Shown here: positions 17,880 to 39,875 of the stretch, in pieces
Layout: the number at the start of each line of letters is the position of its first letter
How positions within the stretch are numbered: the first letter of the stretch is position 1
From: Planctomycetota bacterium
GTDB taxonomy: Bacteria > Planctomycetota > Phycisphaerae > WQYP01
Length of the DNA: 64,000 nucleotides
Reading direction: 5' to 3'
NCBI GenBank assembly: GCA_021810145.1
Contig: JAJZJL010000004.1
Coordinates: forward strand, 3,849 to 67,848
Position numbers and translations under genes: made by a program
Notes under the pieces: generated by a model
The model's database searches: none
Seen by the model: the letters and a program-made list of their open reading frames with translations, nothing else
What the model was told of the DNA's origin: nothing

Positions 17880-17975
17880 GGATGCGGCCGGTAGGGCGGG
17901 CAACGTCGAGCGCGTATGACAGAGCTTGGGCGAACGCCCGATGACAATGAGAAACGCAATGAAAGGAGTCAGGCT

Positions 17976-18815: not shown

Positions 18816-18927
18816 CCGGATTTCGGGGGCTCGGATCCGAATTGTGCCATGTTGCAGATGAAGGCGGCGTTCCCGGCGCGTGCACCGATTGGCCAAAGCC
18901 GCGGAGGCGCTGCCGATAAGGAGTTGA

Positions 18928-19818
18928 ATGATGCGAATCAAGGTTACAGCAGTCTTTACGGTGTGGCTGGTGGCCACCGGTCTGGCCGCCCCGGAACTGA
19001 CGGCTGTGCCACCGGCCACGGCCCGGCCCAATGCGGCGGAGTTGCGGAGGCTCGCCTGGGCCAAAGGCTTGGTTCCGCGGTTGGCCGGCGCGGGTGCCGC
19101 CGCCCGTAAAGCGGCGTTGTCACAGATTACCTGGGAGCTGCGGACCCAACCGTATCCGACGGCACCGCTGGTATACCAATACTGGCTGCCACCGCTGATG
19201 GATCATGGTCATTACCGCGCTGTGGCAAACCTGGCGATGCGAGGTATTCTCGCGGCACCCGCATATACATTCGCCATTGATCGTCTGCTGGTTTTTCGGA
19301 TTCAGGCGTTGGCGGCAATGCATAAAAACGCGGCGGCCCTTCGCGACGCCAAGAGCCTGTTCGACGTATGCCGAATGCAGGATACCGGAACCGCACTGCT
19401 GATTCTGGATCAACGCCTTGATGCGGTGTACCGCAAGCATCCCAATATCGTGCGGCGGTTTGTGCTGGAGGAACGGTCGGGAGCAAAAATGCCTTCGGCT
19501 GGTGGCGGGCCCATCGAAAGATCCCGTGTGCTGGCGTCGATTCAGGTTCACGCCGGTCCCTACCTGGCAAGGCTGAAAGCAATCCACAGCACCGGGTCGT
19601 CCGCTCTGATGGAGAAGGGGGATTTATGGCTGCTGGCGGATCAACCGGCCAAAGCGCTGCGATGTTTTCAATCCATGGAGGCTTATGCGAAAACGTCGCG
19701 GCAGTTGCTGTTGCTGGAGAGATTTATCTGTCGGGCGATCAGGGCGGAGGACGGCACGATTGGCCGGGCCAACGCGCATCTTCTACGGGCGATTCAAGGT
19801 GCAACCCACCCGCAATAA
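18928..19818 (+). CDS. Secreted helical hypothetical protein, paralog B
   Basis: aaggag RBS. Signal peptide MMRIKVTAVFTVWLVATGLAAP. Shares ...RAIRAEDGTIGRANAHLLRA with paralog A and overall collinear similarity. Its stop codon abuts repeat copy 2. Confidence 0.45.
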   Translation: MMRIKVTAVFTVWLVATGLAAPELTAVPPATARPNAAELRRLAWAKGLVPRLAGAGAAARKAALSQITWELRTQPYPTAPLVYQYWLPPLMDHGHYRAVANLAMRGILAAPAYTFAIDRLLVFRIQALAAMHKNAAALRDAKSLFDVCRMQDTGTALLILDQRLDAVYRKHPNIVRRFVLEERSGAKMPSAGGGPIERSRVLASIQVHAGPYLARLKAIHSTGSSALMEKGDLWLLADQPAKALRCFQSMEAYAKTSRQLLLLERFICRAIRAEDGTIGRANAHLLRAIQGATHPQ

Positions 19819-20144
19819 ATGGGCGAGCGTGGTTTGGCCGGCCTGCCGCGAACGCGGCAGGGCGACCGCAGGGAGCATGTGAGCAGTTTGGTCAACCGAG
19901 ATTCGGCAATTTAGTGGAGCATATAGTTCCGTTATTCCGCGATGCGGGAGATTTGCTCATTTAAATATGCAAGCCATCCTATTGATTGCCACTATTTGTC
20001 GCACAAGCCCTCAGATGCAGGCAAGTGTATCCTCAATGACGGCCTTTTGGCCCGCGCTTAAACTTGGTCTGCTGTGGCTTGGCGGCGGAGCGATTGGCCA
20101 GTCTGTTGGCGATTCCTTCATCAATCGCGGCGGCCAGGGCGTGC
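19818..20144. repeat. Direct repeat copy 2 (includes the functional 3' end of uvrB)
   Basis: ~98% identical to 8191..8517. Covers uvrB codons 20033..20144 plus 215 bp downstream of uvrB. Confidence 0.9.
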
Positions 20145-23178: not shown

Positions 23179-24798
23179 TTATGCGGGGTGTTCGGGTTCA
23201 GGAGCATCGCCGGATTCGATGCCCATTTCCTTGACTTTTTTATTGAGGGTATTGCGATTAATGCCCAGAAAGTCGGCGGCCTTAATTTTTACGTCCCCGC
23301 AGCGCTGAAGCGCTTTTTCAAGAAGCGCTTTTTCCACCTGATTAATCACCAGATCGTAAATTTGTCCTTCGCGCAGGGCGTATTCGCTTATGGCCTGATC
23401 GGCGAGACGATGCACCACGCCGTCGAGGTCTTCGCTGGCGACGCTGGTGCGACCCTGCTGGGCAAATGCGCGAATCGCTGTGGGCAGAAGGTCTTCAGTC
23501 AGGGTGTCACCGCGGCTGAGAACCACGGCGCGTTCGATGGCGTTTTCCAGTTCACGCACATTGCCGGGCCAGGGGTAGCGAACAAGTATATTAACCAGAT
23601 CGCGGCTTATTTTATTGAGGTTTTTCCCATTTTCCGCATTGAACTTATCAAAGAAAAAGTCAATGAGTCGGGAAATATCTTCCCGGCGGTTGCGCAATGC
23701 GGGTAAATTGATGGTTACAACATTGAGGCGGTAGAAAAGATCCTCACGGAATTTTCCCTTGGCCACTTCATCCTGCAGGCTTAAGTTGGTCGCAGCGATG
23801 ATCCGGACATCCACGCGGATGGTGCGGGTATCGCCGACACGTTCGAACTCCCGCTCCTGCAGCACGCGCAGGAGTTTTACCTGCAGGCTGGTATCCAGCG
23901 TGCCGATTTCATCAAGGAAAAGCGTGCCGGTGTGGGCGGCTTCAAAGCGGCCGATTTTATCGCGGATAGCGCCGGTAAAGCTCCCTTTGATGTGGCCGAA
24001 AAGTTCCGATTCCAGAAGCGTGCCGCTGAGGGCGCCGCAATTCATGCGGATGAAGGGTTTGTCGGCACGGTTGGAATTGAAATGGATGGCTTTGGCGATC
24101 AATTCCTTACCGGTTCCGGTTTCACCCAGCAGCAGGACGGTAGCGCGGCTTGCCGCCACCTGGGCGATGGTATCAAACACTTCCAGCATCGCGGGCGAAC
24201 TGCCGATGATATTGTCAAATTTGTATTTGCTTTGCAGAGTGCTGCGAAGCTGCCGGCGTTCTTCGAGCCATTCTTCACGTTCGGTGGCGACGATGGAATT
24301 GATCTTAATGGCCTGGGCGATAAATGCCGCAATAATTTCAAGCAATCGTTGATCTTTTTCCAGCGTTTCAAGATCGACAAATTGCTTATCCACGGACAAC
24401 GCACCGCATGGCTTGGATCCAATGAGAATCGGCACGCAGATAAAGCTCGTCACACGCCCTGGCACGGGGATACGGGCCCCGGTGCGGTTGAGAAATTGAA
24501 TTTCCTTGCTGATATCAGCAACGACTCGCGGTTTTCCGGTGGCCACCACCTGCCCGGTAATGCCTTCACCGACATCATATCTTCCACGTTGAATTTCATT
24601 GGCGGTCAGACCTAACGCGGCTTCAATCTGCAATTTTCCCGTGGCGGAATCCAGCAGCACCATTGAGCCGCGCTCCATGCCCAGCCGATCCGCCAGAACA
24701 CGCATTGTCTGATCAAATACGGCGTGAAGATCCAATCCTGATGACAGGACACGACCAATCTCGGTGAGAATAGAAAGTTCCAGTTCAGCGCGATCCAT
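23179..24798 (-). CDS. sigma-54-dependent transcriptional activator (GAF - AAA+ - Fis HTH; NifA/FhlA-like)
   Basis: N-terminal GAF-like domain. Walker [24 protein letters not shown] (GAFTGA) sigma-54 contact motif. C-terminal HTH. Start set at the MDRAELE Met, which has a ggagg RBS. Confidence 0.85.
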
Positions 24799-25337
24799 GA
24801 AAAACAACCTCCGCAATTGCAAACGGTCCAATTCATCTGCGTCGCCAAGCTTCCAACTCCAAAGCTTCGGCCACCGCCGCAAACCATCCACATGCTATTG
24901 TACTATGCAAATGCCGTGCTCGACGGGCCCATACTGATGAAAAAATAGCGGATGCGTCAAAATGAACACGTCAATGGTTCTTTCAATAATGATTATAAGT
25001 CTATATTTATTAATAACTTATATGAGTGGATCCAACCTATGATTGCCGGCGGTTCGGGTATGAATCAGTGCCGGAATTGCAGGCATTAATGCGACGTGAT
25101 GGCAGCCTGACTGCCTTATAACGGGACGAAAGTGCCCAATTGTACCGCATTCCGATTTTGACTTGCGCATAAATTAGGCAATCGCTGAGGCCGTGAAAAA
25201 GTGGGGTAACAGCCAATATGATCGCCAAAATGGATCGTTGACTGGCGGGTCCATGCTGGATTATTTCCTTAAGGTGTACCAGTAATTTGCGGAAGCCTCT
25301 TGCCTTGGCGGCGGCGTTTGGTAGGATGGAGAATCAT

Positions 25338-25410
25338 GGGGACGTAGCTCAATTGGGAGAGCACTGCCTTTGCAAGGCAGGGGTTGCCGGTTCGATCCCG
25401 GTCGTCTCCA
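25338..25410 (+). tRNA. tRNA-Ala (anticodon UGC)
   Basis: Cloverleaf GGGGACG...CGUCUCC acceptor stem. Anticodon loop UUUGCAA. T-arm GGTTCGATCC. No encoded CCA. Confidence 0.9.
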
Positions 25411-25655
25411 TTTTGTTTGGTCCGCATAAAATATTTCAATAATCTGAATTATTTGCTGGCAATTGTGATTCCCTTATGCGTATAATGCTGCTGTATCGAA
25501 ACGGTTCGGTTTGCGATAGTCTTTTAAAATGCTGCAACCCTCCTTGAAAGATGATGCGCAAGTTATAACCGTTCCACCAGCCAGCGGCGTATGCGGCGGA
25601 GTATTTTCTCCGCATCGCGCTTGGAACTGATGGCAGGGACTCATGGGGACGCCGG

Positions 25656-28622
25656 ATGATGGACTTGCCGAACAAGGTCCGCACAAATCTGCAGTGGATC
25701 AGCATCTGGACCAGCATAATGCTGTGCGCGATCAGTCTGCTCGTTCTGGCGGGCTGGTGCACGGGCTACCTTCCCCTGACCAGTGTGCTGCCAGGGCTGA
25801 TTCCGATGAATCCGGTGGTGGCCATCAGCTTTTTTCTCCTGGCGCTGGCAATTGGCTTTCTGGCCCTGTATTCAGAAACCAGCATCCTCCAGAACTGGGA
25901 AATAGCCGCAATTGGAGCTGTCGTGGCTGTTGTGGCCGTGATGCGACTGGCTGCTTATCTCGGTATGGGCAACCTGCACGTGGATTCAATTTTATTTGCC
26001 GATGAGCTTAACAAGGTGCCTTTCGCCCCCAACCGCATGGCACCCAATACCGCGGTGGGACTATTCTTTGGCGGCTTAGGGGTTATGTCGGTGGTGTGGC
26101 GGAAAGCATTTACCCGGCAACTTACGGGAATCGCCGCCGTGGGACTGCTGTTGACCGGCTTGTATGGCATCGCAAATTCTCTGTTTACTTTCTACAGTGT
26201 CAGAGGCAGAGGGGTATATATTCCCACGGCCATGCATACAGCCACAGCTCTGTTGCTGGTGCTGGTGGGAATCGCGGCGATGGACGAGCATTTGCCGATT
26301 ATCCGGCAGTTTATAAAAAGCAGTCCCGGCGGAATTATTATGCGCCGGCTGCTGCCACCACTGATTATTCTACCGTTATTGCTGGGGTGGCTGCGAATTT
26401 TCTTTGAATATCGTCTGCATCTATCAGGTATGCCGGCATCTGCGGCTACCTCAGTGGTCTTGCAGATTATCCTGCTGGGAGCATTGGTTTGGGCCGCGGC
26501 GATCATTATGGATCGGTTATATGATCAACGGCAACAAACCATGCAACGCCTGGAACAGACAAAAACGGAACTCATTGAGGCCAACGCGGCGGCGCAGGAG
26601 GCTGCCCGTGCGAAATCCCAATTCCTGGCCAATATGAGCCATGAAATTCGCACGCCGCTCAATGGTGTGATTTCCATGATGGAACTGCTGGCGGAAACGC
26701 CATTGGATGGGCAACAGCGGGGCTACACGCAGGTAGCCAGAACCAGTGCGGATGCCTTGCTGGCGGTGATAACGGACATTCTCGATTTCTCGAAAATTGA
26801 AGCCGGTCGCATGGAAATTGAATCGGTGGATTTCGATCTGCGAGCCTGCACAGAAGATACGGTATACCTGATGCTTCCCACGGCGATGCGCAAAAAGCTG
26901 GAACTTGGCTATGACATTGCGCCGGATCTTCCGTCGCAGGTGCGGGGGGATCCGGTGCGCCTGCGCCAGGTGCTGATGAATCTGATCAGCAACGCGATTA
27001 AATTCACGGACCGCGGTGAGGTGTGGGTGAAGCTTTCCACTGAGGATATTGCCGAGGGGCGGATTCTGGCGCGGTTTGAAGTTCACGATACGGGCGTGGG
27101 CATTGCGCCGGAGGATGCCCGTAAGCTTTTCACGGCCTTTGCGCAGGTGCATCATCGTGGGGATAAGGTATATGGTGGAACGGGATTGGGATTGGCGATA
27201 AGCCGACAGATTATTGAACTCATGGGCGGCAGAATTGAGCTTGAAAGTCAGGTTGGATCTGGCAGCAATTTCTGGTTTGCGGTTCCGCTGGAGCGTCGGA
27301 AACCGGTCTGGCTCAATGCGGACGCGATTCCCGAAGTGTTGCGACGGCAGCGCGTATTACTGCTAATGGCCAGCGCCGTCAGGCGGGATAAACTGCAGCA
27401 TCAATTGCAGTATTGGAATATTAACGTGCAGACAGTTGCATCGGTCGATGCGTGTCTCGAGTTGCTGCGGACGAACAGCGGTCATCCTTTTGATGTGCTG
27501 TTTGTGGAGCATCAGCCGCCGGAACTCAATGCCCTGGAGATTGCCAGACTGGTTCATGCGCAGGCTGTGGTACGGGCACCGTCTATCGTGGCACTGGCGC
27601 GGGCGGATATGCACATCAGCGGGGCTGTCCAGCGCGAATTCGGGCTTGGAGGAGTACTGGGCAAACCGGTTCGGCAGTCTCAGTTGTATGATTTGCTCAT
27701 GCGGCTGGTATCCGCTAGCGGCGAAATGCCCAGTGTGCCGTCGCCTAAGGCTCAGGCAAAAATTCAGTTGCCCGCGGGCTACCAGGGACTCAAGGTTCTG
27801 GTTGCGGAAGACAATGAAATTAACCAGTTTGTTATCCGTGAGGTTCTTGCAGGGTTGGAATTACAATGCGATGTTGTTGCCAACGGGCAGGAATGTATCA
27901 ATGCCCTGCGGAAAGAAACCTATGCGCTGGTGCTGATGGATTGCCTGATGCCGGTAATGGATGGCTTTGAAGCGGCAAGAAAAATTCGTGAACTGGAAGC
28001 GGTCGGTGGGACATCCGGTGGCATTAACCGGGGGCGCATTGCCATTATTGCCCTGACGGCGAATGTTACGGGATTGGATCGTCAAAACTCGATGGAAGCG
28101 GGCATGGATGCTTTTCTAACCAAACCGCTGGATCGCAGGCAATTGGTTTCGGTTATTGAGTCACTGATTGAAAACCCTGGAATCGGTCAGGCGGCCAAGG
28201 CGTCTTCGCCTGAATTCGCGCAGGACGTGCATGCCGCTCCCGGAGAGGCCACATCAGAATGTGAGCCTTTTGATCTGAAGCGGCTGGAGGATTATTTTTC
28301 CGCCGATAAAGCCATGGTGGAGCGGGTGTTGGGGCAGTTTATCGGACAGGGAAAGCAGCAGATTGCCACACTCAATGAACACATTAATGCCCTGAATTGG
28401 GATGCGGCGCGGCGTGCTGCGCACGCCATTAAAGGCACGGCGGCCTGTCTGTTTGCCGAGGCGCTGCGCCTGGCGGCCAAAGACCTTGAGTTTATCTGCC
28501 ACGATCATCGGGATACCATTCGCGCCGCCGCCGCGTGGCAAAAGGTACAAATGGAAATGAACCGATGTATAGACTATCTGGCACAGCGAAAGACATCGTC
28601 CGGTAAATCCGCATCGGAATAA
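25656..28622 (+). CDS. Hybrid sensor histidine kinase (TM sensor - HisKA - HATPase_c - REC - REC - HPt)
   Basis: Multi-TM N-terminus. H-box MSHEIRTPLNGV. G-box GTGLGLAIS. Receiver domain KVLVAEDNEINQ...LVLMDCLMPVMDGFEA. C-terminal HPt with HAIKGTAACLFA. Confidence 0.85.
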   Translation: MMDLPNKVRTNLQWISIWTSIMLCAISLLVLAGWCTGYLPLTSVLPGLIPMNPVVAISFFLLALAIGFLALYSETSILQNWEIAAIGAVVAVVAVMRLAAYLGMGNLHVDSILFADELNKVPFAPNRMAPNTAVGLFFGGLGVMSVVWRKAFTRQLTGIAAVGLLLTGLYGIANSLFTFYSVRGRGVYIPTAMHTATALLLVLVGIAAMDEHLPIIRQFIKSSPGGIIMRRLLPPLIILPLLLGWLRIFFEYRLHLSGMPASAATSVVLQIILLGALVWAAAIIMDRLYDQRQQTMQRLEQTKTELIEANAAAQEAARAKSQFLANMSHEIRTPLNGVISMMELLAETPLDGQQRGYTQVARTSADALLAVITDILDFSKIEAGRMEIESVDFDLRACTEDTVYLMLPTAMRKKLELGYDIAPDLPSQVRGDPVRLRQVLMNLISNAIKFTDRGEVWVKLSTEDIAEGRILARFEVHDTGVGIAPEDARKLFTAFAQVHHRGDKVYGGTGLGLAISRQIIELMGGRIELESQVGSGSNFWFAVPLERRKPVWLNADAIPEVLRRQRVLLLMASAVRRDKLQHQLQYWNINVQTVASVDACLELLRTNSGHPFDVLFVEHQPPELNALEIARLVHAQAVVRAPSIVALARADMHISGAVQREFGLGGVLGKPVRQSQLYDLLMRLVSASGEMPSVPSPKAQAKIQLPAGYQGLKVLVAEDNEINQFVIREVLAGLELQCDVVANGQECINALRKETYALVLMDCLMPVMDGFEAARKIRELEAVGGTSGGINRGRIAIIALTANVTGLDRQNSMEAGMDAFLTKPLDRRQLVSVIESLIENPGIGQAAKASSPEFAQDVHAAPGEATSECEPFDLKRLEDYFSADKAMVERVLGQFIGQGKQQIATLNEHINALNWDAARRAAHAIKGTAACLFAEALRLAAKDLEFICHDHRDTIRAAAAWQKVQMEMNRCIDYLAQRKTSSGKSASE

Positions 28623-28635
28623 GGAGCATAACGGT

Positions 28636-29688
28636 ATGAAAATTCTCGCGGTCGATGATGATCCCATCGCGCTGGAGATGATCCGGTCCGCACTGGTCCG
28701 TTTTGGCCATGATGTTGTCACAACCACCAGCGGAGCCACGGCGATTGATATGTTGTCGCAATCTCCGATTCGTATGGTCATTACCGACTGGATGATGGAT
28801 TCGATGGATGGCATTCAGTTATGCCGGGCAATTCGACAACGAAAGTTAAGTAGATATGTGTATGTTATAATGTTAAGTTCGCGCGACGATCCGGTCGATG
28901 TGGCGGAGGGTATTGCGGCGGGATCCGATGATTTTATGACCAAACCATTCGATACCGGGGAACTCATCGCGCGCATCAAAGCCGGTGAACGGGCGTTATC
29001 GCTGGAAACGCGTGATGTGACCATTTTTGCGCTGGCGCGACTGGCGGAATCGCGGGATCAGGAAACCGGACTGCACCTGGAGCGAACGCGCAATTATGTG
29101 AAACTTATCGCCGAGCAACTCGCCAAAAGACCGGAACTGGCGCAGGTTATCAATGCCGATTTTGTGCAGATGCTTTATGACACCAGTCCTCTGCATGATA
29201 TTGGAAAAGTGGCCATTCCAGATGCTATTCTTCTCAAACCCGGCAAGCTTACACCCGATGAATATGAAGTCATGAAGCGACATGCCGCCATTGGTGCCGC
29301 AACGCTCAATGAAGTATTGCAGAGCTACCCGGAGGCGGCCTTTCTGGAAATGGCCCGGGACATCGCCGCAACCCATCATGAGCGCTATGATGGCCATGGC
29401 TATCCGCGCGGCCTGGCCGGCGAACAGATTCCATGGGCCGGGCGCATCATGGCTTTGGCGGATGTGTATGATGCGATTACTTCACGTCGCGTGTACAAAG
29501 CGGCGCAGAGTCACGAGCACGCCTGTGGCGTGATTCGCAGCGAGTCCGGAAAACAATTCGGCCCGCGCGTGGTGCAGGCGTTTCTGGATAGGGAGGCGGA
29601 AATACTGGAAGTCCAAAAGCATTTCCGCGAAGCGGAAGATGCCCGCCGCAACACAATTAATGCGCGCCAGGGGGCGTGGAACTGGTAA
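28636..29688 (+). CDS. Response regulator with HD-GYP domain (putative c-di-GMP phosphodiesterase)
   Basis: REC domain (KILAVDDDP...VITDWMMDSMDG). HD-GYP signature HHERYDGHGYPRGL. aaggag RBS. Confidence 0.85.
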   Translation: MKILAVDDDPIALEMIRSALVRFGHDVVTTTSGATAIDMLSQSPIRMVITDWMMDSMDGIQLCRAIRQRKLSRYVYVIMLSSRDDPVDVAEGIAAGSDDFMTKPFDTGELIARIKAGERALSLETRDVTIFALARLAESRDQETGLHLERTRNYVKLIAEQLAKRPELAQVINADFVQMLYDTSPLHDIGKVAIPDAILLKPGKLTPDEYEVMKRHAAIGAATLNEVLQSYPEAAFLEMARDIAATHHERYDGHGYPRGLAGEQIPWAGRIMALADVYDAITSRRVYKAAQSHEHACGVIRSESGKQFGPRVVQAFLDREAEILEVQKHFREAEDARRNTINARQGAWNW

Positions 29689-30990: not shown

Positions 30991-31197
30991 ATAAATCTCC
31001 TTTAATCTGATCTAATTTGTAGGTTATGGGGATTTTGGGCCTGTGTCAAGAAGTTTGCACAGAGGTGTTTCCGGAACCGGCATTGCGCAGTGGTGTTGAT
31101 CAATCGCTGGTGCTTTTGGTGCGGCCGATTACCGTTTGCATCCTGGCTCTTGGCAGGAGCGTTCAGGGGCAGCCCAATGAGCTGGATGGTCAATATA

Positions 31198-32640
31198 TTA
31201 CCGGCTAAGAATTTGATTCAGGACATCTGCGGATGAATAGGATCTTTGCCCCGGCTGCAGATATTGCTTGATATTCACGACATCATCACCGGCGGTAACA
31301 ATAGCGGTTTCGGGTGTACCCTGGGCATCAATCTGGCCGAGTCCGATGGTTGCAAACAGCGCATTGCAGAGACATTTTCGACCAATTGTGTCTTCTTCAC
31401 GACCACCTTTCGCCACATAATCGGCAACGGGTTCAGCGGCGCAGCGATATCCGGGGGTTCCATCGGGGCGTTTATAAATTTTCCGCAGATAGCCAAGATC
31501 GCATTTGCGTTCCCGCTGCAGATATTTTCCCGGATCGGACATGGTTTCCGGCAGCGCCACGACTTTAAACGGAAAGCCGGTGGGCGAGGCCTGTGGATCG
31601 GTAAATACCGTCGCTTGTCCAGACGCAACGGTCGCAAGCACCTGTTGTTTCAAGTCGTCACGGATTCCGGATTCCCGGCAAAAAGCAAAGGCGGTGCCGA
31701 CTTGGATTCCAGCTGCGCCCTGCCCAAGTGCCCAATCCAGTTGTGCCGACGTGGCAAAGCCACCCGCGAGGTAGAACGGCAGGCCAATCTCCGCAATTTT
31801 TACCAGATCAGCGGCATCACGCGGCCCGTAGACCGGTTCGCCGTTGGCACTGAGTTGCATCGGACCGCGCGGCGGTGCATTGTGTCCGCCGGCGGCAGAG
31901 GTTTCAACAATAAAACCGTCAATGCGGCCATTGGACTTCCGAGCCAGAGTCAACGCGAGAGTTGCGGAGGAGACAATCGCAAAAAAACTGGGACGCTTTA
32001 ACAGCGGCGCTGCGGCTTGAACCGGATCGCCGTTGCGTGCGATAAAATCGGCGGGATTAAACTGGCATACAAAGCTTTCGCCGGATTCGGAACCTTCAAC
32101 ATCGACTTTCAGGCTCGCGGACTCCCCGCGTGCCAGGGCATCAAGCACTCCAGGAATAAACCGTGGAATGCCGGCCCCCATGAGCACATAGTCCACACCC
32201 GCGAGCATTGCACCAAAAAGCGTGGGAATCGTCGGCGGCTGTACCTTTTCAAGCAGATTTATTCCGATCGGACCCGAATGGCCGTCTTTGGCGAGAAAAA
32301 CCTCGGCAAAGGCCGCCAGAACCGTTAATTCTTCCAATGCGCGGCTGAAACGGATCATCGGCATGGGGGTTAACTTAAAGGGCGTTTTGGTTTTGACACC
32401 GCCGGGAACAAAATAGCGATTCCATACGCGCTGTGCGATATTTTGATATGGGAACGCATCGAAGGCTCGCCGGAAGTGACCGTCCACGTCACCGGACTGT
32501 AATCGCCGCGCCAGTACGGCAGCGATTCCAGTTCCGGAAATGACCCCAAGCTGACCTTGTCGGGCTACAGATTGTGCAAGAACCCAGTTTGATACTCCAA
32601 CGCCCATTCCGCCTTGAATAATTTTGAACGGTGATTCCAT
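31198..32640 (-). CDS. Nitronate monooxygenase / NAD(P)H-dependent flavin oxidoreductase (NMO, 2-nitropropane dioxygenase family)
   Basis: N-terminus MESPFKIIQGGMGVGVSNWVLAQSVARQGQLGVISG is the hallmark FMN-binding start of the NMO family. Start codon shares a nucleotide with the stop of the upstream radical SAM gene. Confidence 0.65.
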   Translation of the reverse strand: MESPFKIIQGGMGVGVSNWVLAQSVARQGQLGVISGTGIAAVLARRLQSGDVDGHFRRAFDAFPYQNIAQRVWNRYFVPGGVKTKTPFKLTPMPMIRFSRALEELTVLAAFAEVFLAKDGHSGPIGINLLEKVQPPTIPTLFGAMLAGVDYVLMGAGIPRFIPGVLDALARGESASLKVDVEGSESGESFVCQFNPADFIARNGDPVQAAAPLLKRPSFFAIVSSATLALTLARKSNGRIDGFIVETSAAGGHNAPPRGPMQLSANGEPVYGPRDAADLVKIAEIGLPFYLAGGFATSAQLDWALGQGAAGIQVGTAFAFCRESGIRDDLKQQVLATVASGQATVFTDPQASPTGFPFKVVALPETMSDPGKYLQRERKCDLGYLRKIYKRPDGTPGYRCAAEPVADYVAKGGREEDTIGRKCLCNALFATIGLGQIDAQGTPETAIVTAGDDVVNIKQYLQPGQRSYSSADVLNQILSR

Positions 32641-33824
32641 TAAGTGGCAGCTCCACTGGTGATTCCGATTTCCGCGTCGTCGAGATAACAAGCCGGATCA
32701 AAGCCCAGCCAGTCTCCGGTGGCCGCTTCCGCGCGGGTGCGGAGATTTCCGTTGCAGACAGAAAGGAATCGGCATGACTGGCAGCGGGACGGAAGATGTT
32801 CCTTGCGATTGCGCAGAATGGCCAGTCGCGGATCGGTTGCATCGGTCCAGATTTTACTGAAGGGCTGTTCGCGGACATTGCCGCAGTTGTAATGCCATGT
32901 AAACTGGTCGTAATGAACGTTCCCCATGGGATCAACCGATGCAATATTGCACCCGGAGCGGTTGCCCCCGGTGCCTTCCAGCCGCTTGCGGACTTTCTCA
33001 TACAACTGCGGATCCGTTTTTTCCAACTGCAGCAGCAGATACGCGGCGTCCGCGTGGTTATCCACCGTCAATACTTCCAATTCGGTGCCCTGCCGGTGCA
33101 GTTCCTGGCTTTTCTCAAAAATGCGATCCACGACTTTGCGGATTTGCCCGGGAGATAGATCAACTTTTTGCATATTGTCAGCGCGCCCGGCATACGCCAG
33201 ATGGTATACGCAAAGCCGTTGAACATTACTGGCTACACAGATATCAAATATGGCATCAAGGTCGTCAACATTCAGACCATGAACCGTGAAACGCACACCG
33301 ACTTTAATGCCACGTTTGCGGCAACGCTCAATGGCCGCCAGCGTGCTTCGGAACGCTCCCGTTTTGCCGCGGAGTTTATCATGCCTGCTTTCAATGCCGT
33401 CGATGCTGATGCCGGCGTATTTTAATCCGGACTCGGCGAGGTTGTCCGCCATTTTGTCGTCAATCAGCAGGCCATTGGTTGATAGCGTGCAGGCCAGGCC
33501 CAGTGACCGGGCATGGCGAATCAATGGAAGAATGTCCGGGCGGCTCAACGGCTCACCGCCGCTGAAAAGTACCGCTGGAACTTTAAATGCGGCCAGATCG
33601 TCAAGCAAAGCAATGCCTTCGTCATGAGTAAGCTCATTGGGGGCCGGAGCATTGGTGGCGGAGGCGTAGCAGTGCACACAATGGAGATTGCACGATTTCG
33701 TCACCGCCCAGACCACCACCGGACGGGGAGTGGATTCCGCTTCGCCGTGCGCATTGCGGTGACCATAACGGAGACGTTCATTTCCAGCCTGATGATCACA
33801 CAGTAAATTCGTTACGCTGAACAT
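32640..33824 (-). CDS. Radical SAM/SPASM domain protein (NirJ/AhbC/AhbD/PqqE-like)
   Basis: CNLHCVHC (CxxxCxxC). C-terminal Cys-rich SPASM-like region GCNIASVDPMGNVHYDQFTWHYNCGN...RCQSCRFLSVCNGNL. Confidence 0.7.
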   Translation of the reverse strand: MFSVTNLLCDHQAGNERLRYGHRNAHGEAESTPRPVVVWAVTKSCNLHCVHCYASATNAPAPNELTHDEGIALLDDLAAFKVPAVLFSGGEPLSRPDILPLIRHARSLGLACTLSTNGLLIDDKMADNLAESGLKYAGISIDGIESRHDKLRGKTGAFRSTLAAIERCRKRGIKVGVRFTVHGLNVDDLDAIFDICVASNVQRLCVYHLAYAGRADNMQKVDLSPGQIRKVVDRIFEKSQELHRQGTELEVLTVDNHADAAYLLLQLEKTDPQLYEKVRKRLEGTGGNRSGCNIASVDPMGNVHYDQFTWHYNCGNVREQPFSKIWTDATDPRLAILRNRKEHLPSRCQSCRFLSVCNGNLRTRAEAATGDWLGFDPACYLDDAEIGITSGAAT

Positions 33825-34966
33825 AATGGTAGACTCCTGTTTGAGATTTCCTGCTGATAGTAACTTGCCCCATACGCACAATCAGGCTCCGCGGCCAGCG
33901 GATCGCCGGTAAGACCGTACGAGCGTGCCCGACTTCCACCGCAGATGTCCCGATACCGGCAGGCTCCACACTTGCCCTTAAGTTTGTCGGGATCCCGCAA
34001 AGCGACAAACAGCGGTGCGAATTGATAGGTATGAACAACCGAATCCCTTGGAAATCTTCCGCATTCCACCGGCAGAAAGCCGCTGGGAAATATTTCACCG
34101 ACGTGGCTGATGAACATCACGCCGCGGCCGTCATTGGTGCCCACGATATTGGGAATCACCGGCCGGGGCGAAGCGCTGCCGGCGTCTTGTTTCATTTTTT
34201 CAATAACAAATCGGCGATAGTGGGGGGCTTCGGTGGTTTTGATGGCATATTTCTGGCGGCGGCTCTGCTGAAAAAGCTTTTCAAAGGCGGTTTCAAATTC
34301 ATCCGCCGTAATGCGTTGATCCGCCAATGCCCGGCCGGTGGGGACCAGAAAAAAGACCGACCAGAGCACAATGGGAAATGCCGCCAGCACTTCCGCGATG
34401 GCGTCGATCTGATGAAAGTTGTGTCTGGCGATCGTGGTGTTGACCTGCAACGGCAGATCGCACGCTGCGGCATCGGCAATGATTTCAAGCGTCCGCTGAA
34501 AACTACCGGGAACCCGCCGGAACCCATCATGGGTGGGGGCATCAGCCGCATCGAGGCTTACGGCCAGGCGGTGCAGGCCGGCTTTTTTCAGTCGATGGAT
34601 GGCATTGGTGGTCACGAGCTTTGTGGCCGACGGGGTCATGGCGGTTTTCAGACCCGAGGTCACGGCATGATGCACAATCTGAAATATATCGTGCCGCTTG
34701 ATCGGATCGCCGCCGGTGAGCACCAGCAGCGGTGGCTTGGGAAATTCGGCCAGATTGTTAATCAGCGCCAAAGACGCCGCGGAGTCCAGTTCATGGGGGT
34801 CTCTGTGCGGCTGGGCTTCGGCGCGGCAGTGGCGGCACAGCAGATTGCAGGCGCGGGTAACTTCATAGAATGTCACCAGCGGTGAATGCGGGAAGTCCTG
34901 GGCGGTATAATCCGGACGGGCGGTTGAGGCTCCGGCCCGCATCTGGATTGTGTCTTTACTGACCAT
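33812..34966 (-). CDS. Radical SAM/SPASM domain protein (second, paralogous class)
   Basis: CNLLCRHC radical SAM triad. C-terminal GKCGACRYRDICGGSRARSY...EPDCAY auxiliary-cluster cysteines. aaggag RBS. Confidence 0.7.
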   Translation of the reverse strand: MVSKDTIQMRAGASTARPDYTAQDFPHSPLVTFYEVTRACNLLCRHCRAEAQPHRDPHELDSAASLALINNLAEFPKPPLLVLTGGDPIKRHDIFQIVHHAVTSGLKTAMTPSATKLVTTNAIHRLKKAGLHRLAVSLDAADAPTHDGFRRVPGSFQRTLEIIADAAACDLPLQVNTTIARHNFHQIDAIAEVLAAFPIVLWSVFFLVPTGRALADQRITADEFETAFEKLFQQSRRQKYAIKTTEAPHYRRFVIEKMKQDAGSASPRPVIPNIVGTNDGRGVMFISHVGEIFPSGFLPVECGRFPRDSVVHTYQFAPLFVALRDPDKLKGKCGACRYRDICGGSRARSYGLTGDPLAAEPDCAYGASYYQQEISNRSLPLCSA

Positions 34967-34984
34967 AATGCAAGCTCCTTAATC

Positions 34985-35023
34985 TTGACGAATATCAATG
35001 TTTTATTACAATATTGATATTCG
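34985..35023. promoter_or_regulatory. Putative operator overlapping a sigma70-like promoter (TTGACG-N16-TACAAT) between the divergent rSAM operon and the PNPOx-like gene
   Basis: Perfect 11-bp inverted repeat cgaatatcaat-N13-attgatattcg at 34989..35023. -35/-10 hexamers at 34985 and 35007. Confidence 0.45.
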
Positions 35024-35056
35024 CATCCAGTTATTGTATTTTAACCGGAGTTACAC

Positions 35057-35548
35057 ATGATTACCATGACCGAAACGGAAATCTTCAATCTCCTGGACCG
35101 CAGCCTCATTGGCCGCCTGGCCATGGCTGATCTGCAGGGGCGTCCCTACGCCATTCCGCTTCCCTTCTGTCGCATCGACAATATCATTTATCTCCGTGTG
35201 CCGATGACCGGACGCAAGGCCGACATTCTCGCTGTTAACAATCAGGTCTGTTTCGAGATTGATGTATTCACTGACCAGCTCGACGATTACGCGTCCATCC
35301 TGGTGGAGGGGCGGCTGGTCGGTGTTGATGATCTTATGGAAAAAGCGCGTGTCCGGATGATCAACGACGCCAAGTATAACGCCCTGCGCCATGCCTTCAG
35401 ACCCGGTCATGGTCGCCGCACGGCTCTGGAAGATCTGCCGACGCGCAAAATTATTCCCAGCAGTATCAGCGGTAGAAAAATGACTCCGCGTGAATTGTCG
35501 GTTCCTGCGGCGATCGGCACGCAGAGTGCGGAATCTGTGAAAGAATGA
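35057..35548 (+). CDS. Pyridoxamine 5'-phosphate oxidase-like FMN-binding split-barrel protein
   Basis: 163 aa. RSLIGRLAMADLQGRPYAIPLPF...QVCFEIDVF pattern typical of the PNPOx/NimA family. Confidence 0.55.
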   Translation: MITMTETEIFNLLDRSLIGRLAMADLQGRPYAIPLPFCRIDNIIYLRVPMTGRKADILAVNNQVCFEIDVFTDQLDDYASILVEGRLVGVDDLMEKARVRMINDAKYNALRHAFRPGHGRRTALEDLPTRKIIPSSISGRKMTPRELSVPAAIGTQSAESVKE

Positions 35549-35710
35549 ACGCAGCGTGGCAGCCATTTTAGCAGTCCTTTCTAATGCCCTCGCGTAACGG
35601 ACCATCTTGAAATACGTCCGTTACCGGTAAATGCCCTCCCAACGGCTGGCCGCCGAAGACGGGTCTTCGGCAGCCAGGCCGCATCGTTGGGAAGAGAGAG
35701 AGCAAGTCCA

Positions 35711-36055
35711 TCAGTGGGCGCTGGCACTTTGTAAAAACGCCAACACCTTTTTGGCCTGTGTGCCGGTAAGGCCGGCGCGTAGCCGCATGTATTGCACAAT
35801 AATGCCCCATTGTGCGGGCGTATATTGCGACGGAGAACGCAATTGATGACATCGCATGCAGTTTTCCGCCCATATCTGAGCGCCGGACTCGTTGGCCGCG
35901 GGGTCTTTAATCGTCAGTGGCCACACGGCCGGTTTTGCGGCGGCGGACGACGATTTGGTTGATTTGTTGCTGGCGCAGCCCGCCATTACAACCAATCCCA
36001 TTGCCGCGGCGGTTATGGTTATGGACCTGGTGATTTTATATTTCATCAAATTCAT
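35711..36055 (-). CDS. Small lipoprotein c-type cytochrome
   Basis: Lipobox MAGC. Single CMRCH heme-binding motif. gaggag RBS. Confidence 0.55.
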   Translation of the reverse strand: MNLMKYKITRSITITAAAMGLVVMAGCASNKSTKSSSAAAKPAVWPLTIKDPAANESGAQIWAENCMRCHQLRSPSQYTPAQWGIIVQYMRLRAGLTGTQAKKVLAFLQSASAH

Positions 36056-36090
36056 TGAATAACTCCTCAAGTAAGATGCCAAAAGGTAAT

Positions 36091-37443
36091 TTAGATACCA
36101 ACAGCAAATTGAACATACATCGCATCGTTGCCGTGCAATCCATTCGAGAGATTGTCAAATTCATACTCGAATTTCAGTACGGCATTGGAGTGCAGCCAGT
36201 AATCCAGACCGATGCTGTAGCGCTGCTCATGTGACGCACCATTGGAGAAATTCGCCGCTGCGGGGCCGTCAATGCGATCATATCGGAAAGCGGCCATCAT
36301 CTTATCGAGGTATTTTATACCGCAGAGACTGGGCTGATATGCGACTTCCAACTGGCCGCCGTTGGACATGCCGCCGAGTGAAAATGCGCCGGTGGAATCA
36401 ATGCCCTGGCCGACCTGATCCCATGTCCATCCGCCGCGGAAGCGGAACAATCCGTCAATTTTCTTATTAACGTAATACGTATTAATATCGACGGCATTGA
36501 TCAGAGAATTGGTGGTGGTGATTGAACCATCGGCACTGGGCCTGGACCATTCAAATGAATAACCAAGTTCAATATTCGGAATGGGAAGATAGCTGAATCG
36601 GCCGCCAACGGTTTTGCCGTTCTGGGCCGCGGGGTTCCAATTGCCGAATCCCAGATTGTTGTAACTGGCACCATTGATATCATGAGTCGTGGCCAGGACC
36701 GGGCCATTACTGACAAACAGGAAATAGGTCAGGTAGCCCATATTGTCCGGTGCGGGCAGCCCGCCGCGGGTCCATACGCCCAGTTCGTTGGGCGGCAATA
36801 GAGCGCCTTCCAGCGATCCATCGACCAGCCAGCGATTCCACGGGGCTGGATTGTATTGTCCGACAATTCCACCAATGGGGCTGGTAACCAGACCGCCACC
36901 AAGGGTGACGTAATTATTGAGTTCATAGTTGATATTTGCCGCTCCGATGTCCGCGGCACTGCCACCGGCCGCGCCGGCGCTGGTGTAGAAATCGAATGCG
37001 GTGTTAATGAAAATATTCTTATCCACACGCACTTGAATCATGGGGCTGGAATCGGCATAAAAGGTGGACGCCGAACCATCGACATGCTGGAACTGGAAAT
37101 TCACATCCCCCGCGATGAGCACCTGAATATTGCCGGGTTCGAGATTCGAGATTTTTTGGCTGTCTTTCATGACCCGCCGGTACAGCCGTTTGACTTCCCG
37201 ATCAATGGCGGCGGTATCAGTGGTGGCGGCCTTGGCCTGACTGGCCTTAAGAGCCGCCTGCTGCTTCTGCATCGCCGACATCTGTTTGGCCATAGTGGCC
37301 ATCTGCTCCTGAAGTTGCTGGTATTTGTGTTCCAGCTTCTGGTAGTCGGCTCCGCCGCCCGCCGGATCAGCCCAAGCTGCCGCCGCCGGCATGATCGCCA
37401 GCGCTGCCGCCATACTGATAAGAACCCTGCGCTTTTGTGTCAT
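36091..37443 (-). CDS. Putative outer-membrane beta-barrel porin with N-terminal coiled coil
   Basis: Signal peptide. Gln/Ala/Lys-rich coiled-coil segment, then alternating amphipathic strands rich in Gly/Tyr/Asn. No specific family recognised. Confidence 0.4.
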   Translation of the reverse strand: MTQKRRVLISMAAALAIMPAAAAWADPAGGGADYQKLEHKYQQLQEQMATMAKQMSAMQKQQAALKASQAKAATTDTAAIDREVKRLYRRVMKDSQKISNLEPGNIQVLIAGDVNFQFQHVDGSASTFYADSSPMIQVRVDKNIFINTAFDFYTSAGAAGGSAADIGAANINYELNNYVTLGGGLVTSPIGGIVGQYNPAPWNRWLVDGSLEGALLPPNELGVWTRGGLPAPDNMGYLTYFLFVSNGPVLATTHDINGASYNNLGFGNWNPAAQNGKTVGGRFSYLPIPNIELGYSFEWSRPSADGSITTTNSLINAVDINTYYVNKKIDGLFRFRGGWTWDQVGQGIDSTGAFSLGGMSNGGQLEVAYQPSLCGIKYLDKMMAAFRYDRIDGPAAANFSNGASHEQRYSIGLDYWLHSNAVLKFEYEFDNLSNGLHGNDAMYVQFAVGI

Positions 37444-37609
37444 GGCACAATCCTTTCCTTAAACGCACACCCAAACTCGGCTCGGCACACGCGTGCCGAA
37501 ACACCGTAAAGAAATTGATTCCAGGCCCTTCGGCCGTCCCTTGTATCATCTGCCCGCTGTATTTTTTTAATACTTGCCGTGCTTCTTGTCAATTAAATTT
37601 CACTTGGCC

Positions 37610-38050
37610 TTAGTTTTTATCAAATTGCTTTTTCAGATAATCAATTACTTCCCAGCGTTGTTTGCGGCTTAAGGCGTCGCGAAAGCTGGGCATTGGACTG
37701 TGCCCATGCGTGATTTTCCAGAAGATCGCCCCTTCTCCCTGCGACCAGAAGGATGCGGTGGTCAGATTCGCCGGGTGCGGGCTTAAAAACGCTCCTGTCG
37801 GTCCATCGCCCGTTCCGTTGGATCCATGGCAGGCTTCGCAGTTGGCCGCAAACAGACTGCTGCCAGCATGGATGGAAGCGGCGGTAATGGGGACCGGGTT
37901 GGCTTTGGAGGCAGCCGAGGCCGGTGCGCGCCACGAATCCACACGGTCAAGTTGCTTCCGGATTGAATTCACATTCAAGCCCGCCGCCAGTGACACACCG
38001 ACTATGCTGGTTAAACCGCCAACTGCTAACATCATACGTATCCGATTCAT
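37610..38050 (-). CDS. Class I c-type cytochrome (paralog 1)
   Basis: Signal peptide. CEACHG heme motif. Shares GDGPTGAFL.PHPAN...FWKITHGHSPMPSFRD.LSRKQRW with the ORF at 38493. Confidence 0.65.
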   Translation of the reverse strand: MNRIRMMLAVGGLTSIVGVSLAAGLNVNSIRKQLDRVDSWRAPASAASKANPVPITAASIHAGSSLFAANCEACHGSNGTGDGPTGAFLSPHPANLTTASFWSQGEGAIFWKITHGHSPMPSFRDALSRKQRWEVIDYLKKQFDKN

Positions 38051-38492
38051 CGCAACTGTGTCCTTTCTTACTAATCGTTTTCCGCGGCATTTGTATCGAG
38101 CATTCGGGAGATGATCGTGAAACATTTCACAAGTCGCAACATCTTGCCACGAACGCTTCCGCGTTATTTATGTGCGTATCATCGTAAAACTCGGAAATAA
38201 AAAAAATCGGGACTTATCCGCGACGGCATGTAAGGAATTATTCTCAACCGCTTGTAGGGATTTATCCAAGGGGGTATAAGATTTTCACCTATGAACGTGC
38301 ATAATCATATTGATTTTACTGATGAAAAATTGGTTGATCGTTGCGGTCGCAACGGCCGGGCATGAGAAAAAGTGAATTGTCGATACCTTGAACGATGTTG
38401 TGCCAGTCGCGATAGTATGACCATTGTAAACGATCCAACGCATGAAGCGTTGGCAGATGGTATGATGGTAAGAGAAACTGGAGACTCAATCG

Positions 38493-38927
38493 ATGCTGTT
38501 AAATGTATCAAAAGCTGTGGTGGTTGTTATCGGTGCCGCTCTTTTGGCCGGTAGCGGGAAGACGGTGATTCCCACGGCTGGTACACCGGTGGAGTTATCG
38601 AGTTGGAACGCTCCGCATTCGGCATGGAAGAAGAAAAATCCCATTCCCATGTCGGCCGCTTCGATTCAAGCCGGGCAGGCAATCTTTTCACAGAATTGTG
38701 AAGCGTGCCATGGGGCCGACGGCAAAGGGGATGGGCCTACCGGAGCGTTTCTCAACCCGCATCCGGCGAATTTCACCAAGGCATCATTCTGGGCGCAGAC
38801 GGATGGAGCAATATTCTGGAAAATTACCCATGGGCACAGTCCAATGCCGAGTTTTCGTGATTCATTGAGCCGTAAACAGCGTTGGAACGTCATCAACTAC
38901 ATGCGGCATGCATTTGATAAAAAATAA
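38493..38927 (+). CDS. Class I c-type cytochrome (paralog 2)
   Basis: Signal peptide. CEACHG motif. About 80% nucleotide identity to paralog 1 over the C-terminal half. Oriented divergently from it. Confidence 0.65.
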   Translation: MLLNVSKAVVVVIGAALLAGSGKTVIPTAGTPVELSSWNAPHSAWKKKNPIPMSAASIQAGQAIFSQNCEACHGADGKGDGPTGAFLNPHPANFTKASFWAQTDGAIFWKITHGHSPMPSFRDSLSRKQRWNVINYMRHAFDKK

Positions 38928-39061
38928 ACAATGCGGGACAGCAAAAGCAAAAGGCCGGCGGATAGATCTATCCGCCGGCCTTTTTTGTTTGGCAGCCAAA
39001 ATGATACCTTCGTCCCTGATTGTTATAAGCTCCGCAGCTTTCTCCACGGATAGAGCCGCGA

Positions 39062-39523
39062 TTATTTTTTCCGCTTTTTGCAGAAGATCAATGCGTCGAT
39101 CGAAAGCATTCCCGGCCCGCTGATGAGAATCAGTCCGGAAATGGCAATCAACGCCAGTTGGAAATCAATCGATCCGAATCCACCGGCGTGGGAAACACAG
39201 ATAATTCCGATCAAGTTAAGGATCAGAAATATACTTACCACGCGGGACAGGAGTCCGACGATAATCAATATCCCGCCGAAAAATTGAGTAATTCCGGCGG
39301 CGTACGCCCAGACATCCGTGGGGAGAACCGGCAGGTGGTCCGAGGAGAGCATCTGTATAAACGCGTGCATGCCCTGTCCGCCGAATATCCCAAATAAAAA
39401 TTGACCGCTGTAATAAATGAAGATAATGCCCATCATTATCCGTACCAGCAGGGTACCAAGTCCCGTCGCCAGTGTGGAACTTGCGCATGTGCCGCCCGTT
39501 GTATTTTCAGTATTCGCTGTCAT
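39062..39523 (-). CDS. DoxX family membrane protein
   Basis: Four hydrophobic helices with a DoxX-like pattern (GLGTLLVRIMMGIIFIYYSG..., ...ILIIVGLLSRV...). aggag RBS. Confidence 0.65.
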   Translation of the reverse strand: MTANTENTTGGTCASSTLATGLGTLLVRIMMGIIFIYYSGQFLFGIFGGQGMHAFIQMLSSDHLPVLPTDVWAYAAGITQFFGGILIIVGLLSRVVSIFLILNLIGIICVSHAGGFGSIDFQLALIAISGLILISGPGMLSIDALIFCKKRKK

Positions 39524-39875
39524 TGAAGAGAACTCCTGTAAAAAAAATACGATAATACGATTTCGTCGGCCCAAAGAGAATCAAATCGATTCCATCACTA
39601 TGTTCGACTCGTTGCCCCGGCCACGATTGATCCACACAGTCCTTACGAAATTATCTTCGGCAGCTGATTTATAGATTACCTGCCGGTGTCAAAGCGGTCA
39701 AGGATCGCTTATTTTCTGCTGTTGTACCGGAATATAAATCTCATTTTGAACCGAAGCGGATGCGGCCGATGAGTACTGGTGGAAGCGTGTGCGTCCAGAA
39801 CCGCCCGGAACGCCGGCCAACAGTGCCGAACCCGACGGCCAGATGTCACGATTTTGCACGCGCGCCCCATGTTAG

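Follow-up and report, generated by a model that had tools for sequence, protein, structure and literature searches.

The stretch analysed here (the window) comprises 64,000 nucleotides of contig JAJZJL010000004.1 (positions 3,849 to 67,848) from a Planctomycetota bacterium of the class Phycisphaerae (GenBank assembly GCA_021810145.1). Its minus strand carries two overlapping genes for radical S-adenosylmethionine (SAM) enzymes, here called rSAM1 (33812..34966, 384 aa) and rSAM2 (32640..33824, 394 aa), which recur together in two bacterial phyla. We propose, with a probability of roughly 50%, that this pair is an oxygen-independent haem-finishing module composed of an AhbD-type rSAM1 and an AhbC-type rSAM2, the decarboxylase being encoded elsewhere. 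The conserved unit is the rSAM1-rSAM2 pair itself, and not the triad which it forms in this genome with a following gene for a nitronate monooxygenase (NMO)-family protein.

Conservation of the gene pair

Orthologous loci were collected by genome and metagenome scans and contig look-ups and defined by an rSAM2 at least 60% identical to that of the window, giving 33 loci from Planctomycetota and Armatimonadota. An rSAM1 orthologue lies directly 5′ of rSAM2 in 32 of these loci, the remaining one ending at a contig edge, and the rSAM1 subtree largely mirrors that of rSAM2. The stop of rSAM1 and the start of rSAM2 overlap by 13 nt in the window (33812..33824, minus strand, reading ATGTTCAGCGTAA), with AGGAG located 8 nt 5′ of the rSAM2 ATG. 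The same 13-nt overlap is found at 24 of the 32 loci, in both phyla, and six others have an overlap of 7-8 nt. The overlap together with the AGGAG suggests that the two genes are translationally coupled. When open reading frames (ORFs) of 14 loci were clustered, only the pair and a gene for a pyridoxamine 5′-phosphate oxidase (PNPOx)-like protein recurred, and other neighbours varied. Judging from these sequences, the pair is a sub-branch of its own, left unnamed by current family models and recognizable by marker cysteines.

The NMO-family gene (31198..32640, minus strand, 480 aa) shares a single base with rSAM2, the stop of one and the start of the other forming TAATG. Only the 14 loci of the closest clade have it 3′ of the pair, each with the 1-nt overlap, and the pair occurs without it in 19 of the 33 orthologous loci. 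Orthologues of the NMO gene with 59-76% identity stand alone in Nibricoccus, Verrucomicrobiota and other Phycisphaerae (L001-L004, L007), and one metagenome-assembled genome (MAG) has the pair (L017) and the NMO gene (L002) on separate contigs. Because the NMO gene is solitary elsewhere and its coupling to the pair is confined to the closest clade, we regard the triad as a lineage-specific juxtaposition. Thus, the rSAM-rSAM-NMO triad, pointed out in an initial sequence-only reading of this DNA, does not hold as a unit across genomes. The gene layout described in that reading was otherwise borne out, including two minus-strand radical SAM ORFs with CxxxCxxC motifs, their 13-nt overlap, the junction with the 480-aa NMO-family gene, the divergent PNPOx-like split-barrel gene, and a 90-bp divergent region with an 11-bp inverted repeat over TTGACG-N16-TACAAT.

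Family placement of rSAM1

Both proteins match the radical SAM family PF04055 (55.2 bits for rSAM1 and 105 bits for rSAM2, cut-off 29.5). rSAM1 is a member of NCBIfam TIGR04053 (415.6 bits, cut-off 395), aligning with model positions 2-364 of 366, and its orthologues in loci L008 and L009 match the same model with 440 bits. The second-best family is AhbD haem b synthase (TIGR04545), whose cut-off of 500 bits is not reached (303.2 bits). Among orthologues of the two rSAM proteins, some have been named 'AdoMet-dependent heme synthase' and 'Fe-coproporphyrin III synthase' by JGI, and a literature search for 'TIGR04053' found no paper. Among 120 orthologues, the cysteines of the radical-SAM cluster (C40/C44/C47) are 100% conserved, as is an auxiliary-cluster motif of the AuxII type (C333-X2-C336-X5-C342-X20-C363). 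A C-terminal CX2CX5CX20-38C motif is common to all AhbDs (PMC10452713), and rSAM1 has it.

According to the sequence-only reading, both proteins have SPASM-type C-terminal regions. The motif CX2CX5CX20-21C, which in NirJ holds the only auxiliary [4Fe-4S] cluster and which AhbC and all AhbDs have in common (PMC12505453, PMC10452713), is indeed present in both, but the Pfam SPASM domain (PF13186) is matched only by rSAM2 (24.9 bits, cut-off 21.5), rSAM1 having no match at E≤0.001. By cysteine count, it is arguable that just one of the two genes has a genuine SPASM domain, a possibility also raised in that reading: rSAM2 has the conserved C196, C205, C292 and C314 in addition to its AuxII motif, and rSAM1 has, beyond its own, one extra cysteine, C302. 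We do not count this asymmetry against a role in haem synthesis, because bona fide AhbDs of the AuxII-only type found in rSAM1 have been published, and the one-cluster and two-cluster forms of AhbD have the same function (PMC10452713). C302 is present in 98% of rSAM1 proteins of the paired clade and is replaced by A, T or G in stand-alone members from Thermus, Bacillus and Deinococcus. The AhbD-like glycerol monoalkyl glycerol tetraether (GMGT) synthase Gms, a lipid enzyme, was also considered and ruled out. Gms is longer than 400 aa and has an N-terminal COG4001 extension of ~100 aa (PMC11214058), whereas rSAM1 has 384 aa, a radical SAM motif starting at residue 40 and no such extension.

Stand-alone TIGR04053 genes of Thermus, Bacillus and Deinococcus, which are coproporphyrin-pathway phyla, are found in anaerobic, nitric oxide (NO)-related or tetrapyrrole contexts. 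The Thermus thermophilus gene is located between nirS and a cytochrome c gene (nirM), near norB and genes for Rrf2, DUF542 and YwiC; its product is known as the 'NirJ' of the nic cluster, and the promoter of this gene depends on DnrS/DnrT and NsrR (PMC5748679). On plasmids of the Bacillus cereus group, the gene adjoins nrdDG, adhE, YwiC and FprA, and in Deinococcus ficus it adjoins genes for a P450, CbiX, cobA and sulfite reductase. The presence of YwiC and Rrf2 near the lone Thermus gene and of YwiC near the Bacillus one recalls a neighbourhood of the pair in a metagenome contig (L103), described below. According to reviews, AhbD of coproporphyrin-pathway organisms without other Ahb enzymes is an oxygen-independent coproheme decarboxylase (PMC13564367).

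Family placement of rSAM2

rSAM2 aligns end to end with the models of NirJ1 (TIGR04054, 458.5 bits, cut-off 650), AhbC (TIGR04546, 421.8 bits, cut-off 650), a haloarchaeal pseudo-SAM family (417.5 bits) and NirJ (TIGR04051, 381.8 bits, cut-off 515), missing the cut-off in all cases. These four top families are sirohaem-pathway enzymes. The tetrapyrrole reading (AhbC/AhbD/NirJ) offered from the sequence alone is therefore upheld to the extent that these are the best-scoring families for both proteins, but clear best hits in a canonical genomic context were not found. The missed AhbC cut-off is uninformative for rSAM2, because it is also missed by an AhbC-like protein encoded directly before a fused AhbA-AhbB in a Phycisphaeraceae MAG (SRP239054_co1_163, locus L059, 9836-12245): the fusion passes both of its own cut-offs, whereas the AhbC-like protein scores only 457.5 bits against 650. 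The same locus indicates that part of the sirohaem-dependent route is present in some Phycisphaerae. Some distant homologues of rSAM2 in a representative library are fused to TP_methylase, cytochrome d1 or NirDL-type sirohaem decarboxylase domains, which makes the superfamily firmly tetrapyrrole-related. For either rSAM protein, no solved structure of a close relative was found.

In 120 orthologues of rSAM2, the radical-SAM cluster cysteines C45/C49/C52 are 100% conserved. The AuxII motif consists of C348/C351/C357/C379, and six further cysteines (C9, C168, C196, C205, C292 and C314) are 93-100% conserved. At four of these positions, cysteine is rare in the wider superfamily, as judged from 81 full-length representatives (C292, 2%; C314, 4%; C196, 7%; C9, 17%). 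This pattern makes a second auxiliary-cluster site in rSAM2 plausible. The pair of Planctomycetota MAG P01_E01_bin.51 (L028) is the sole one among those aligned whose rSAM2 lacks both C292 (replaced by A) and C314 (replaced by V), and its rSAM1 has A in place of C302. Such joint loss hints that rSAM2 C292/C314 and rSAM1 C302 may cooperate.

Two other groups of relatives are of note. A representative of the rSAM2 clade in a 50%-identity library (P0361, 632 aa) is 62% identical to rSAM2 over residues 1-384 and continues into a C-terminal class I SAM-methyltransferase domain (PrmA/MTS-like), which is either a real fusion or a gene-calling artefact. The haloarchaeal 'pseudo-SAM' family, TIGR04347, includes a member that still has the three radical-SAM cysteines in the alignment. 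On haloarchaeal plasmids the TIGR04347 gene is always preceded by one for a 114-aa protein annotated by NCBI as 'Htur_1727 family rSAM-partnered candidate RiPP' (ribosomally synthesized and post-translationally modified peptide). On plasmid pHBOR02 of Halogeometricum borinquense (L090:5660-7212), its neighbours encode cupin, DUF2249, Rieske, cytochrome b and molybdopterin-oxidoreductase proteins, and a TIGR04053 gene is located elsewhere on the replicon.

Proposed function and alternatives

In the proposed haem-finishing module, rSAM2 would most likely act as AhbC does, converting didecarboxysirohaem to coproheme by side-chain removal on the sirohaem-derived iron isobacteriochlorin, and for this step a sirohaem decarboxylase would have to be encoded in another part of the genome. 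rSAM1 would most likely follow, decarboxylating two propionates of coproheme to vinyls to give haem b by means of the radical-SAM cluster and a single auxiliary [4Fe-4S] cluster in its C-terminal part. The PNPOx-like flavoprotein in Planctomycetota, or RIC/ScdA and hemerythrin in other lineages, would be accessory, maybe as redox partners or in Fe-S repair.

Several observations weigh against this proposal. The order of the pair is D-like then C-like, whereas the canonical ahbC-ahbD-ahbAB cluster, in the one example inspected (on a Paenibacillus plasmid), has the C-like gene before the D-like one, followed by AhbAB. rSAM2 is only 45-49% identical to two AhbC-like proteins encoded next to AhbAB (~45% for that of L059), even though one of them comes from the same bacterial class, while orthologues of rSAM2 stay 62-73% identical across phyla. 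The clade-specific cysteines of rSAM2, rare in the wider superfamily, point the same way. In a small neighbour-joining tree, rSAM2 groups with proteobacterial NirJ (100% bootstrap, small sample) and not with AhbC-like proteins; this sister grouping is tentative, because the AhbC side of the tree consists of just the two AhbAB-linked sequences. The coproporphyrin route, moreover, needs no AhbC. Its enzyme HemQ/ChdC has been reported in Planctomycetes (PMC5095920), and in the literature examined no biochemical test was found for TIGR04053 members or for the rSAM2 clade.

The remaining point concerns the decarboxylase. A tblastn search with NirDL, NirG, NirH and two fused AhbA-AhbB proteins, in which positive controls worked, retrieved no AhbAB/NirDLGH homologue from the window or from the flanks of the 33 orthologous loci, 412 kb in total. 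That the window lacks ahbA/B, as remarked from the sequence alone, is thus correct, and the lack extends to all 33 loci; the Pfam-annotated genes of the 64-kb window likewise include no haem or sirohaem gene outside the module. By comparison, a sirohaem decarboxylase is encoded near 121 of 138 loci of distant rSAM2 homologues (<60% identity, mostly NirJ-type), and the distant-homologue loci with the decarboxylase have no TIGR04053-type partner. In a comparison restricted to loci flanked by 3 kb or more on either side, the counts are 0/18 and 56/66 (Fisher p ~1e−11). However, absence from the flanks is not proof of genome-wide absence, because dispersed ahb genes are normal in Haloferax, where they occupy four loci (PMC8305020).

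A rival explanation is a self-contained oxygen-independent bypass in coproporphyrin-route organisms devoid of sirohaem decarboxylase. In such a bypass rSAM1 would replace the peroxide-dependent ChdC, and rSAM2, with its extra cluster site, would carry out a new reaction, the candidates being the oxygen-independent oxidation of coproporphyrinogen III in place of CgoX or the processing of sirohaem itself. This would agree with the lack of a linked decarboxylase (0/33 loci versus 121/138), with the distinct rSAM2 clade and its own conserved cysteines, with the otherwise solitary occurrence of TIGR04053 in coproporphyrin-pathway phyla (PMC13564367), with the reported planctomycete HemQ (PMC5095920) and with the NO/anoxia-type neighbours of the pair (Rrf2, RIC/ScdA, hemerythrin and YwiC). 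However, the absence of AhbAB covers the window and flanks only, unlinked ahb genes being normal in archaea (PMC8305020), and the new reactions are speculative. Nor need the extra cysteines of rSAM2 mean new chemistry, because one- and two-cluster AhbDs share their function (PMC10452713). All in all, we consider the bypass unlikely, although it is the main rival of the haem-finishing module. In its most far-reaching version, the pair in carriers without sirohaem decarboxylase would be a complete NO/anoxia-regulated replacement of both the oxygen- and the peroxide-dependent step of the coproporphyrin pathway, with rSAM1 as an anaerobic coproheme decarboxylase and rSAM2 responsible for, e.g. anaerobic oxidation of coproporphyrinogen III; this version appears rather doubtful.

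A product other than haem b, such as a haem d1-like tetrapyrrole made through NirJ-like propionate removal by rSAM2 with rSAM1 as a maturation factor, would be in keeping with the grouping of rSAM2 and NirJ in the tree and with the Thermus TIGR04053 gene, which has nirS and nirM on either side and has been described as a likely participant in the maturation of NirS (PMC5748679). It is nevertheless improbable, since tblastn searches with positive controls detected no cd1-type NirS/NirN/NirF, NorB, NirE/CobA or CbiX in the window or the 33 loci, which also lack decarboxylase homologues, whereas such cd1/NorB/CobA-type genes are present at more than 100 NirJ-type loci; in addition, the tree holds only two AhbC-like sequences and the NirJ-model score of rSAM2 is below its NirJ1 and AhbC scores. 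That the triad forms one pathway, with the NMO protein acting on the product of the rSAM enzymes, would explain why the 1-nt overlap is kept throughout the closest clade, but it is very improbable given the solitary NMO orthologues in Verrucomicrobiota and other Phycisphaerae, the 19 loci with the pair alone, and the resemblance of the NMO fold and cysteine subdomain to the fatty-acid enzymes FabX and FabK. Least credible is a peptide-maturation system of the RiPP, pyrroloquinoline quinone (PQQ) or mycofactocin kind with an unrecognized precursor, which the sequence-only reading had also entertained. Both rSAM proteins share a SPASM-type fold family with RiPP maturases, and the related haloarchaeal TIGR04347 protein adjoins a candidate RiPP of the Htur_1727 family according to NCBI, but the scores are far below the cut-offs for PqqE (124 versus 381 bits) and MftC (121 versus 265 bits) and lower still for other maturases. 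A comparison of small ORFs in 30991-31197, 34967-35056 and 35549-35710 with relatives revealed no conservation except in shadows of real genes, in agreement with the earlier remark that no precursor peptide is obvious. No conserved small gene next to the pair was found in the orthologous loci examined and no Htur_1727 homologue near the pair, and a precursor peptide was accordingly rejected.

The haem-finishing module that we favour bears on a wider issue, as anaerobic haem synthesis via the coproporphyrin route is only partly settled. AhbD-like genes have been invoked for the last step of oxygen-free haem synthesis by this route, and CgoN is not known outside Bacillaceae. Found in two phyla, co-evolving and without a linked decarboxylase, the pair may represent the last two Ahb steps in a compact and differently organized form, or may hint at an undescribed anaerobic step. 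With either meaning, it offers two enzymes that can be tested together and a sub-family clearly marked by cysteines of its own.

The NMO-family protein

The NMO product matches PF03060 (58.5 bits, cut-off 28) and falls far below the cut-off for FabK (TIGR03151, 30.6 versus 453 bits). The best fold matches in the PDB for its AlphaFold2 model (predicted local distance difference test score, pLDDT, 89.7) are FabX, then FabK. Among 120 homologues with 59-99% identity, which constitute a family of Planctomycetota and Verrucomicrobiota, 126 of the 480 residues are at least 98% conserved, and four cysteines (C380, C400, C423 and C425) are invariant. FabX of Helicobacter pylori is an FMN/[4Fe-4S] acyl-acyl carrier protein dehydrogenase/isomerase with cysteines arranged as CX3CX3CX11C (PMC8626469). 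The NMO product resembles FabX and FabK in its FMN-binding TIM barrel and, as far as the model goes, FabX in a C-terminal subdomain bearing cysteines. It differs from them in overall sequence (17-18% identity), in the spacing of the cysteines (CX19CX22CXC) and in being ~110 residues longer. Based on the modelled fold, it may be a redox enzyme of fatty acids or other acyl chains, and no link to tetrapyrroles was found. We suppose that the NMO gene would be an unrelated FabX/FabK-like flavoenzyme gene captured into the operon in one lineage. Its coupling to the pair is incidental, and recognizing this averts a wrong pathway model.

The divergent gene, its control region and accessory genes

The PNPOx-like split-barrel flavoprotein is encoded on the plus strand (35057..35548, 163 aa) and matches Pyridox_ox_2 (PF12900, 52.3 bits, cut-off 27), its score for PF01243 being below the cut-off (19.9 versus 28.1 bits). 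Profile searches against the PDB retrieved FMN/FAD-binding split-barrel proteins without assigned function. At 19 of the 33 orthologous loci, all from Planctomycetota, the gene lies upstream of the pair in divergent orientation, with identities down to 60%. Hence both elements emphasized in the sequence-only reading, the facing PNPOx-like gene and the palindrome between the genes, are conserved, but the former only in Planctomycetota and the latter only in close relatives.

In lineages without the PNPOx-like gene, RIC/ScdA, hemerythrin, YwiC or an Rrf2 regulator is encoded next to the pair instead. One example is metagenome contig Ga0078972_1004089 (L103, 5526-12044), where an Rrf2 gene is divergent from a run encoding RIC/ScdA, YwiC, hemerythrin, rSAM1 and rSAM2, with TauE on the opposite strand; the neighbourhood of the pair is here an apparent NO/Fe-S-stress cluster. 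At other loci, RIC/ScdA is encoded directly 5′ of rSAM1 (L020), a hemerythrin gene overlaps rSAM1 (L008), or an Rrf2 gene is located 1.7 kb 3′ of the pair (L027).

The 90-bp spacer between rSAM1 and the PNPOx-like gene (34967..35056) contains the inverted repeat cgaatatcaat-N13-attgatattcg, a promoter-like site and Shine-Dalgarno sequences of both divergent genes. A repeat finder delineated the palindrome as 17-nt arms (34989-35005 and 35007-35023) that are 88% complementary and 1 nt apart. Of the 14 inverted repeats listed for the 64 kb, only three, this one included, have separate, non-overlapping arms. The other two (38942-38991, with 25-nt arms 88% complementary, and 5135-5168, with perfect 15-nt arms) are probably terminators, because both are located at gene ends. 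The promoter-like site, TTGACG-16-TACAAT (34985-35012, plus strand; 10/12 matches), overlaps the palindrome, and the number of promoter-like sites in the region is not above that in shuffled sequences (4 versus 3.4). Among 11 close relatives the spacer has a mean identity of 82%. The 8-bp cores, CGAATATC-N19-GATATTCG, are intact in L005, L006, L010 and L017; the right core has one mismatch in L011-L014 (TATATTCG), and the cores are degenerate in L015/L016 and absent from more distant loci. There is slight dyad-preserving covariation, confined to inner pairs and largely to one clade, and the consensus fold has only −4.2 kcal/mol. We therefore set aside an RNA hairpin and, given the weakness of the consensus fold, read the palindrome as a protein-binding site. 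A possible FNR/CRP box noticed by eye (TTGAC-N4-ATCAA) was rejected, as four relatives have lost the G of TGA and the distance to the start codon of rSAM1 is too short for a site at which an activator would act. The half-site 9-mer ACGAATATC also occurs in the 23-bp NsrR operator of S. coelicolor hmpA1, the half-sites being 20 bp further apart here, and we treat this likeness as a lead only. The palindrome would thus be a putative operator of a repressor, for which an Rrf2/NsrR-like regulator responsive to NO or anoxia is a candidate; no Rrf2 gene was found in the window.

Other features of the window

The rest of the window is ordinary chromosome, with gyrB, uvrB, nusA, infB, hisF/G and pentose-phosphate genes. 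A search of the whole window with Rfam at gathering thresholds returned one tRNA only, ruling out a riboswitch or other known RNA. A contig of MAG GCA_027436295.1 (L095) is 99% identical to and syntenic with the window. Beside the PNPOx-like gene, the region 35711-39574 encodes a 123-aa lipoprotein with CxxCH, two small cbb3-type cytochromes c, a DoxX membrane protein and a secreted protein of 450 aa that has a coiled coil in its N-terminal part and matches no Pfam family; this cluster is syntenic at loci where rSAM2 is at least 85% identical (L005, L011, L015-L017 and L095). Signalling genes occupy 23179-29688, a few kb from the module, and are syntenic in L095; they encode an activator of the GAF/sigma-54 kind, a hybrid histidine kinase of 988 aa that includes an Hpt domain, and a response regulator whose HD domain is of the HD-GYP type. 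Finally, the region 12000-20000 has a G+C content of 0.60-0.61, compared to ~0.53 elsewhere, and encodes proteins of a planctomycete type, namely DUF1573, DUF1559 and MauE-like ones along with several that have no Pfam match.

Comparison with known systems

rSAM2 resembles AhbC, the 12,18-didecarboxysirohaem deacetylase, and the NirJ1 of Firmicutes in aligning over the full length and in having the same radical-SAM and CX2CX5CX21C motifs. It differs from them in scoring below their cut-offs, in having no adjacent sirohaem decarboxylase at any of the 33 loci and in its reversed order relative to the AhbD-like gene. With NirJ of haem d1 synthesis it has 41-47% identity and the auxiliary-cluster motif in common and is its sister in the small tree, but nirS/N/F/E/DLGH, which accompany most NirJ-type loci, are not nearby. 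The haloarchaeal TIGR04347 pseudo-SAM/SPASM proteins are 42-45% identical to rSAM2 and have TIGR04053 genes on the same replicons, although the two genes are not adjacent there, unlike rSAM1 and rSAM2.

The closest relatives of known or named function of rSAM1 fall into two sets. The TIGR04053 members of Thermus thermophilus ('NirJ'), the Bacillus cereus group and Deinococcus ficus are 41-45% identical to it, but stand alone, with neither an rSAM2-type partner nor C302. AhbD, as known from Methanosarcina barkeri and Desulfovibrio vulgaris, is the second-best family over the full length of rSAM1. Unlike AhbD, rSAM1 is a member of the sister family TIGR04053, has no AuxI cysteines of the methanogen/sulfate-reducer type, and is encoded as the upstream partner of an AhbC/NirJ-like gene, unlinked to ahbAB. 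Among AhbDs, it is comparable to the AuxII-only enzymes of non-methanogenic archaea.

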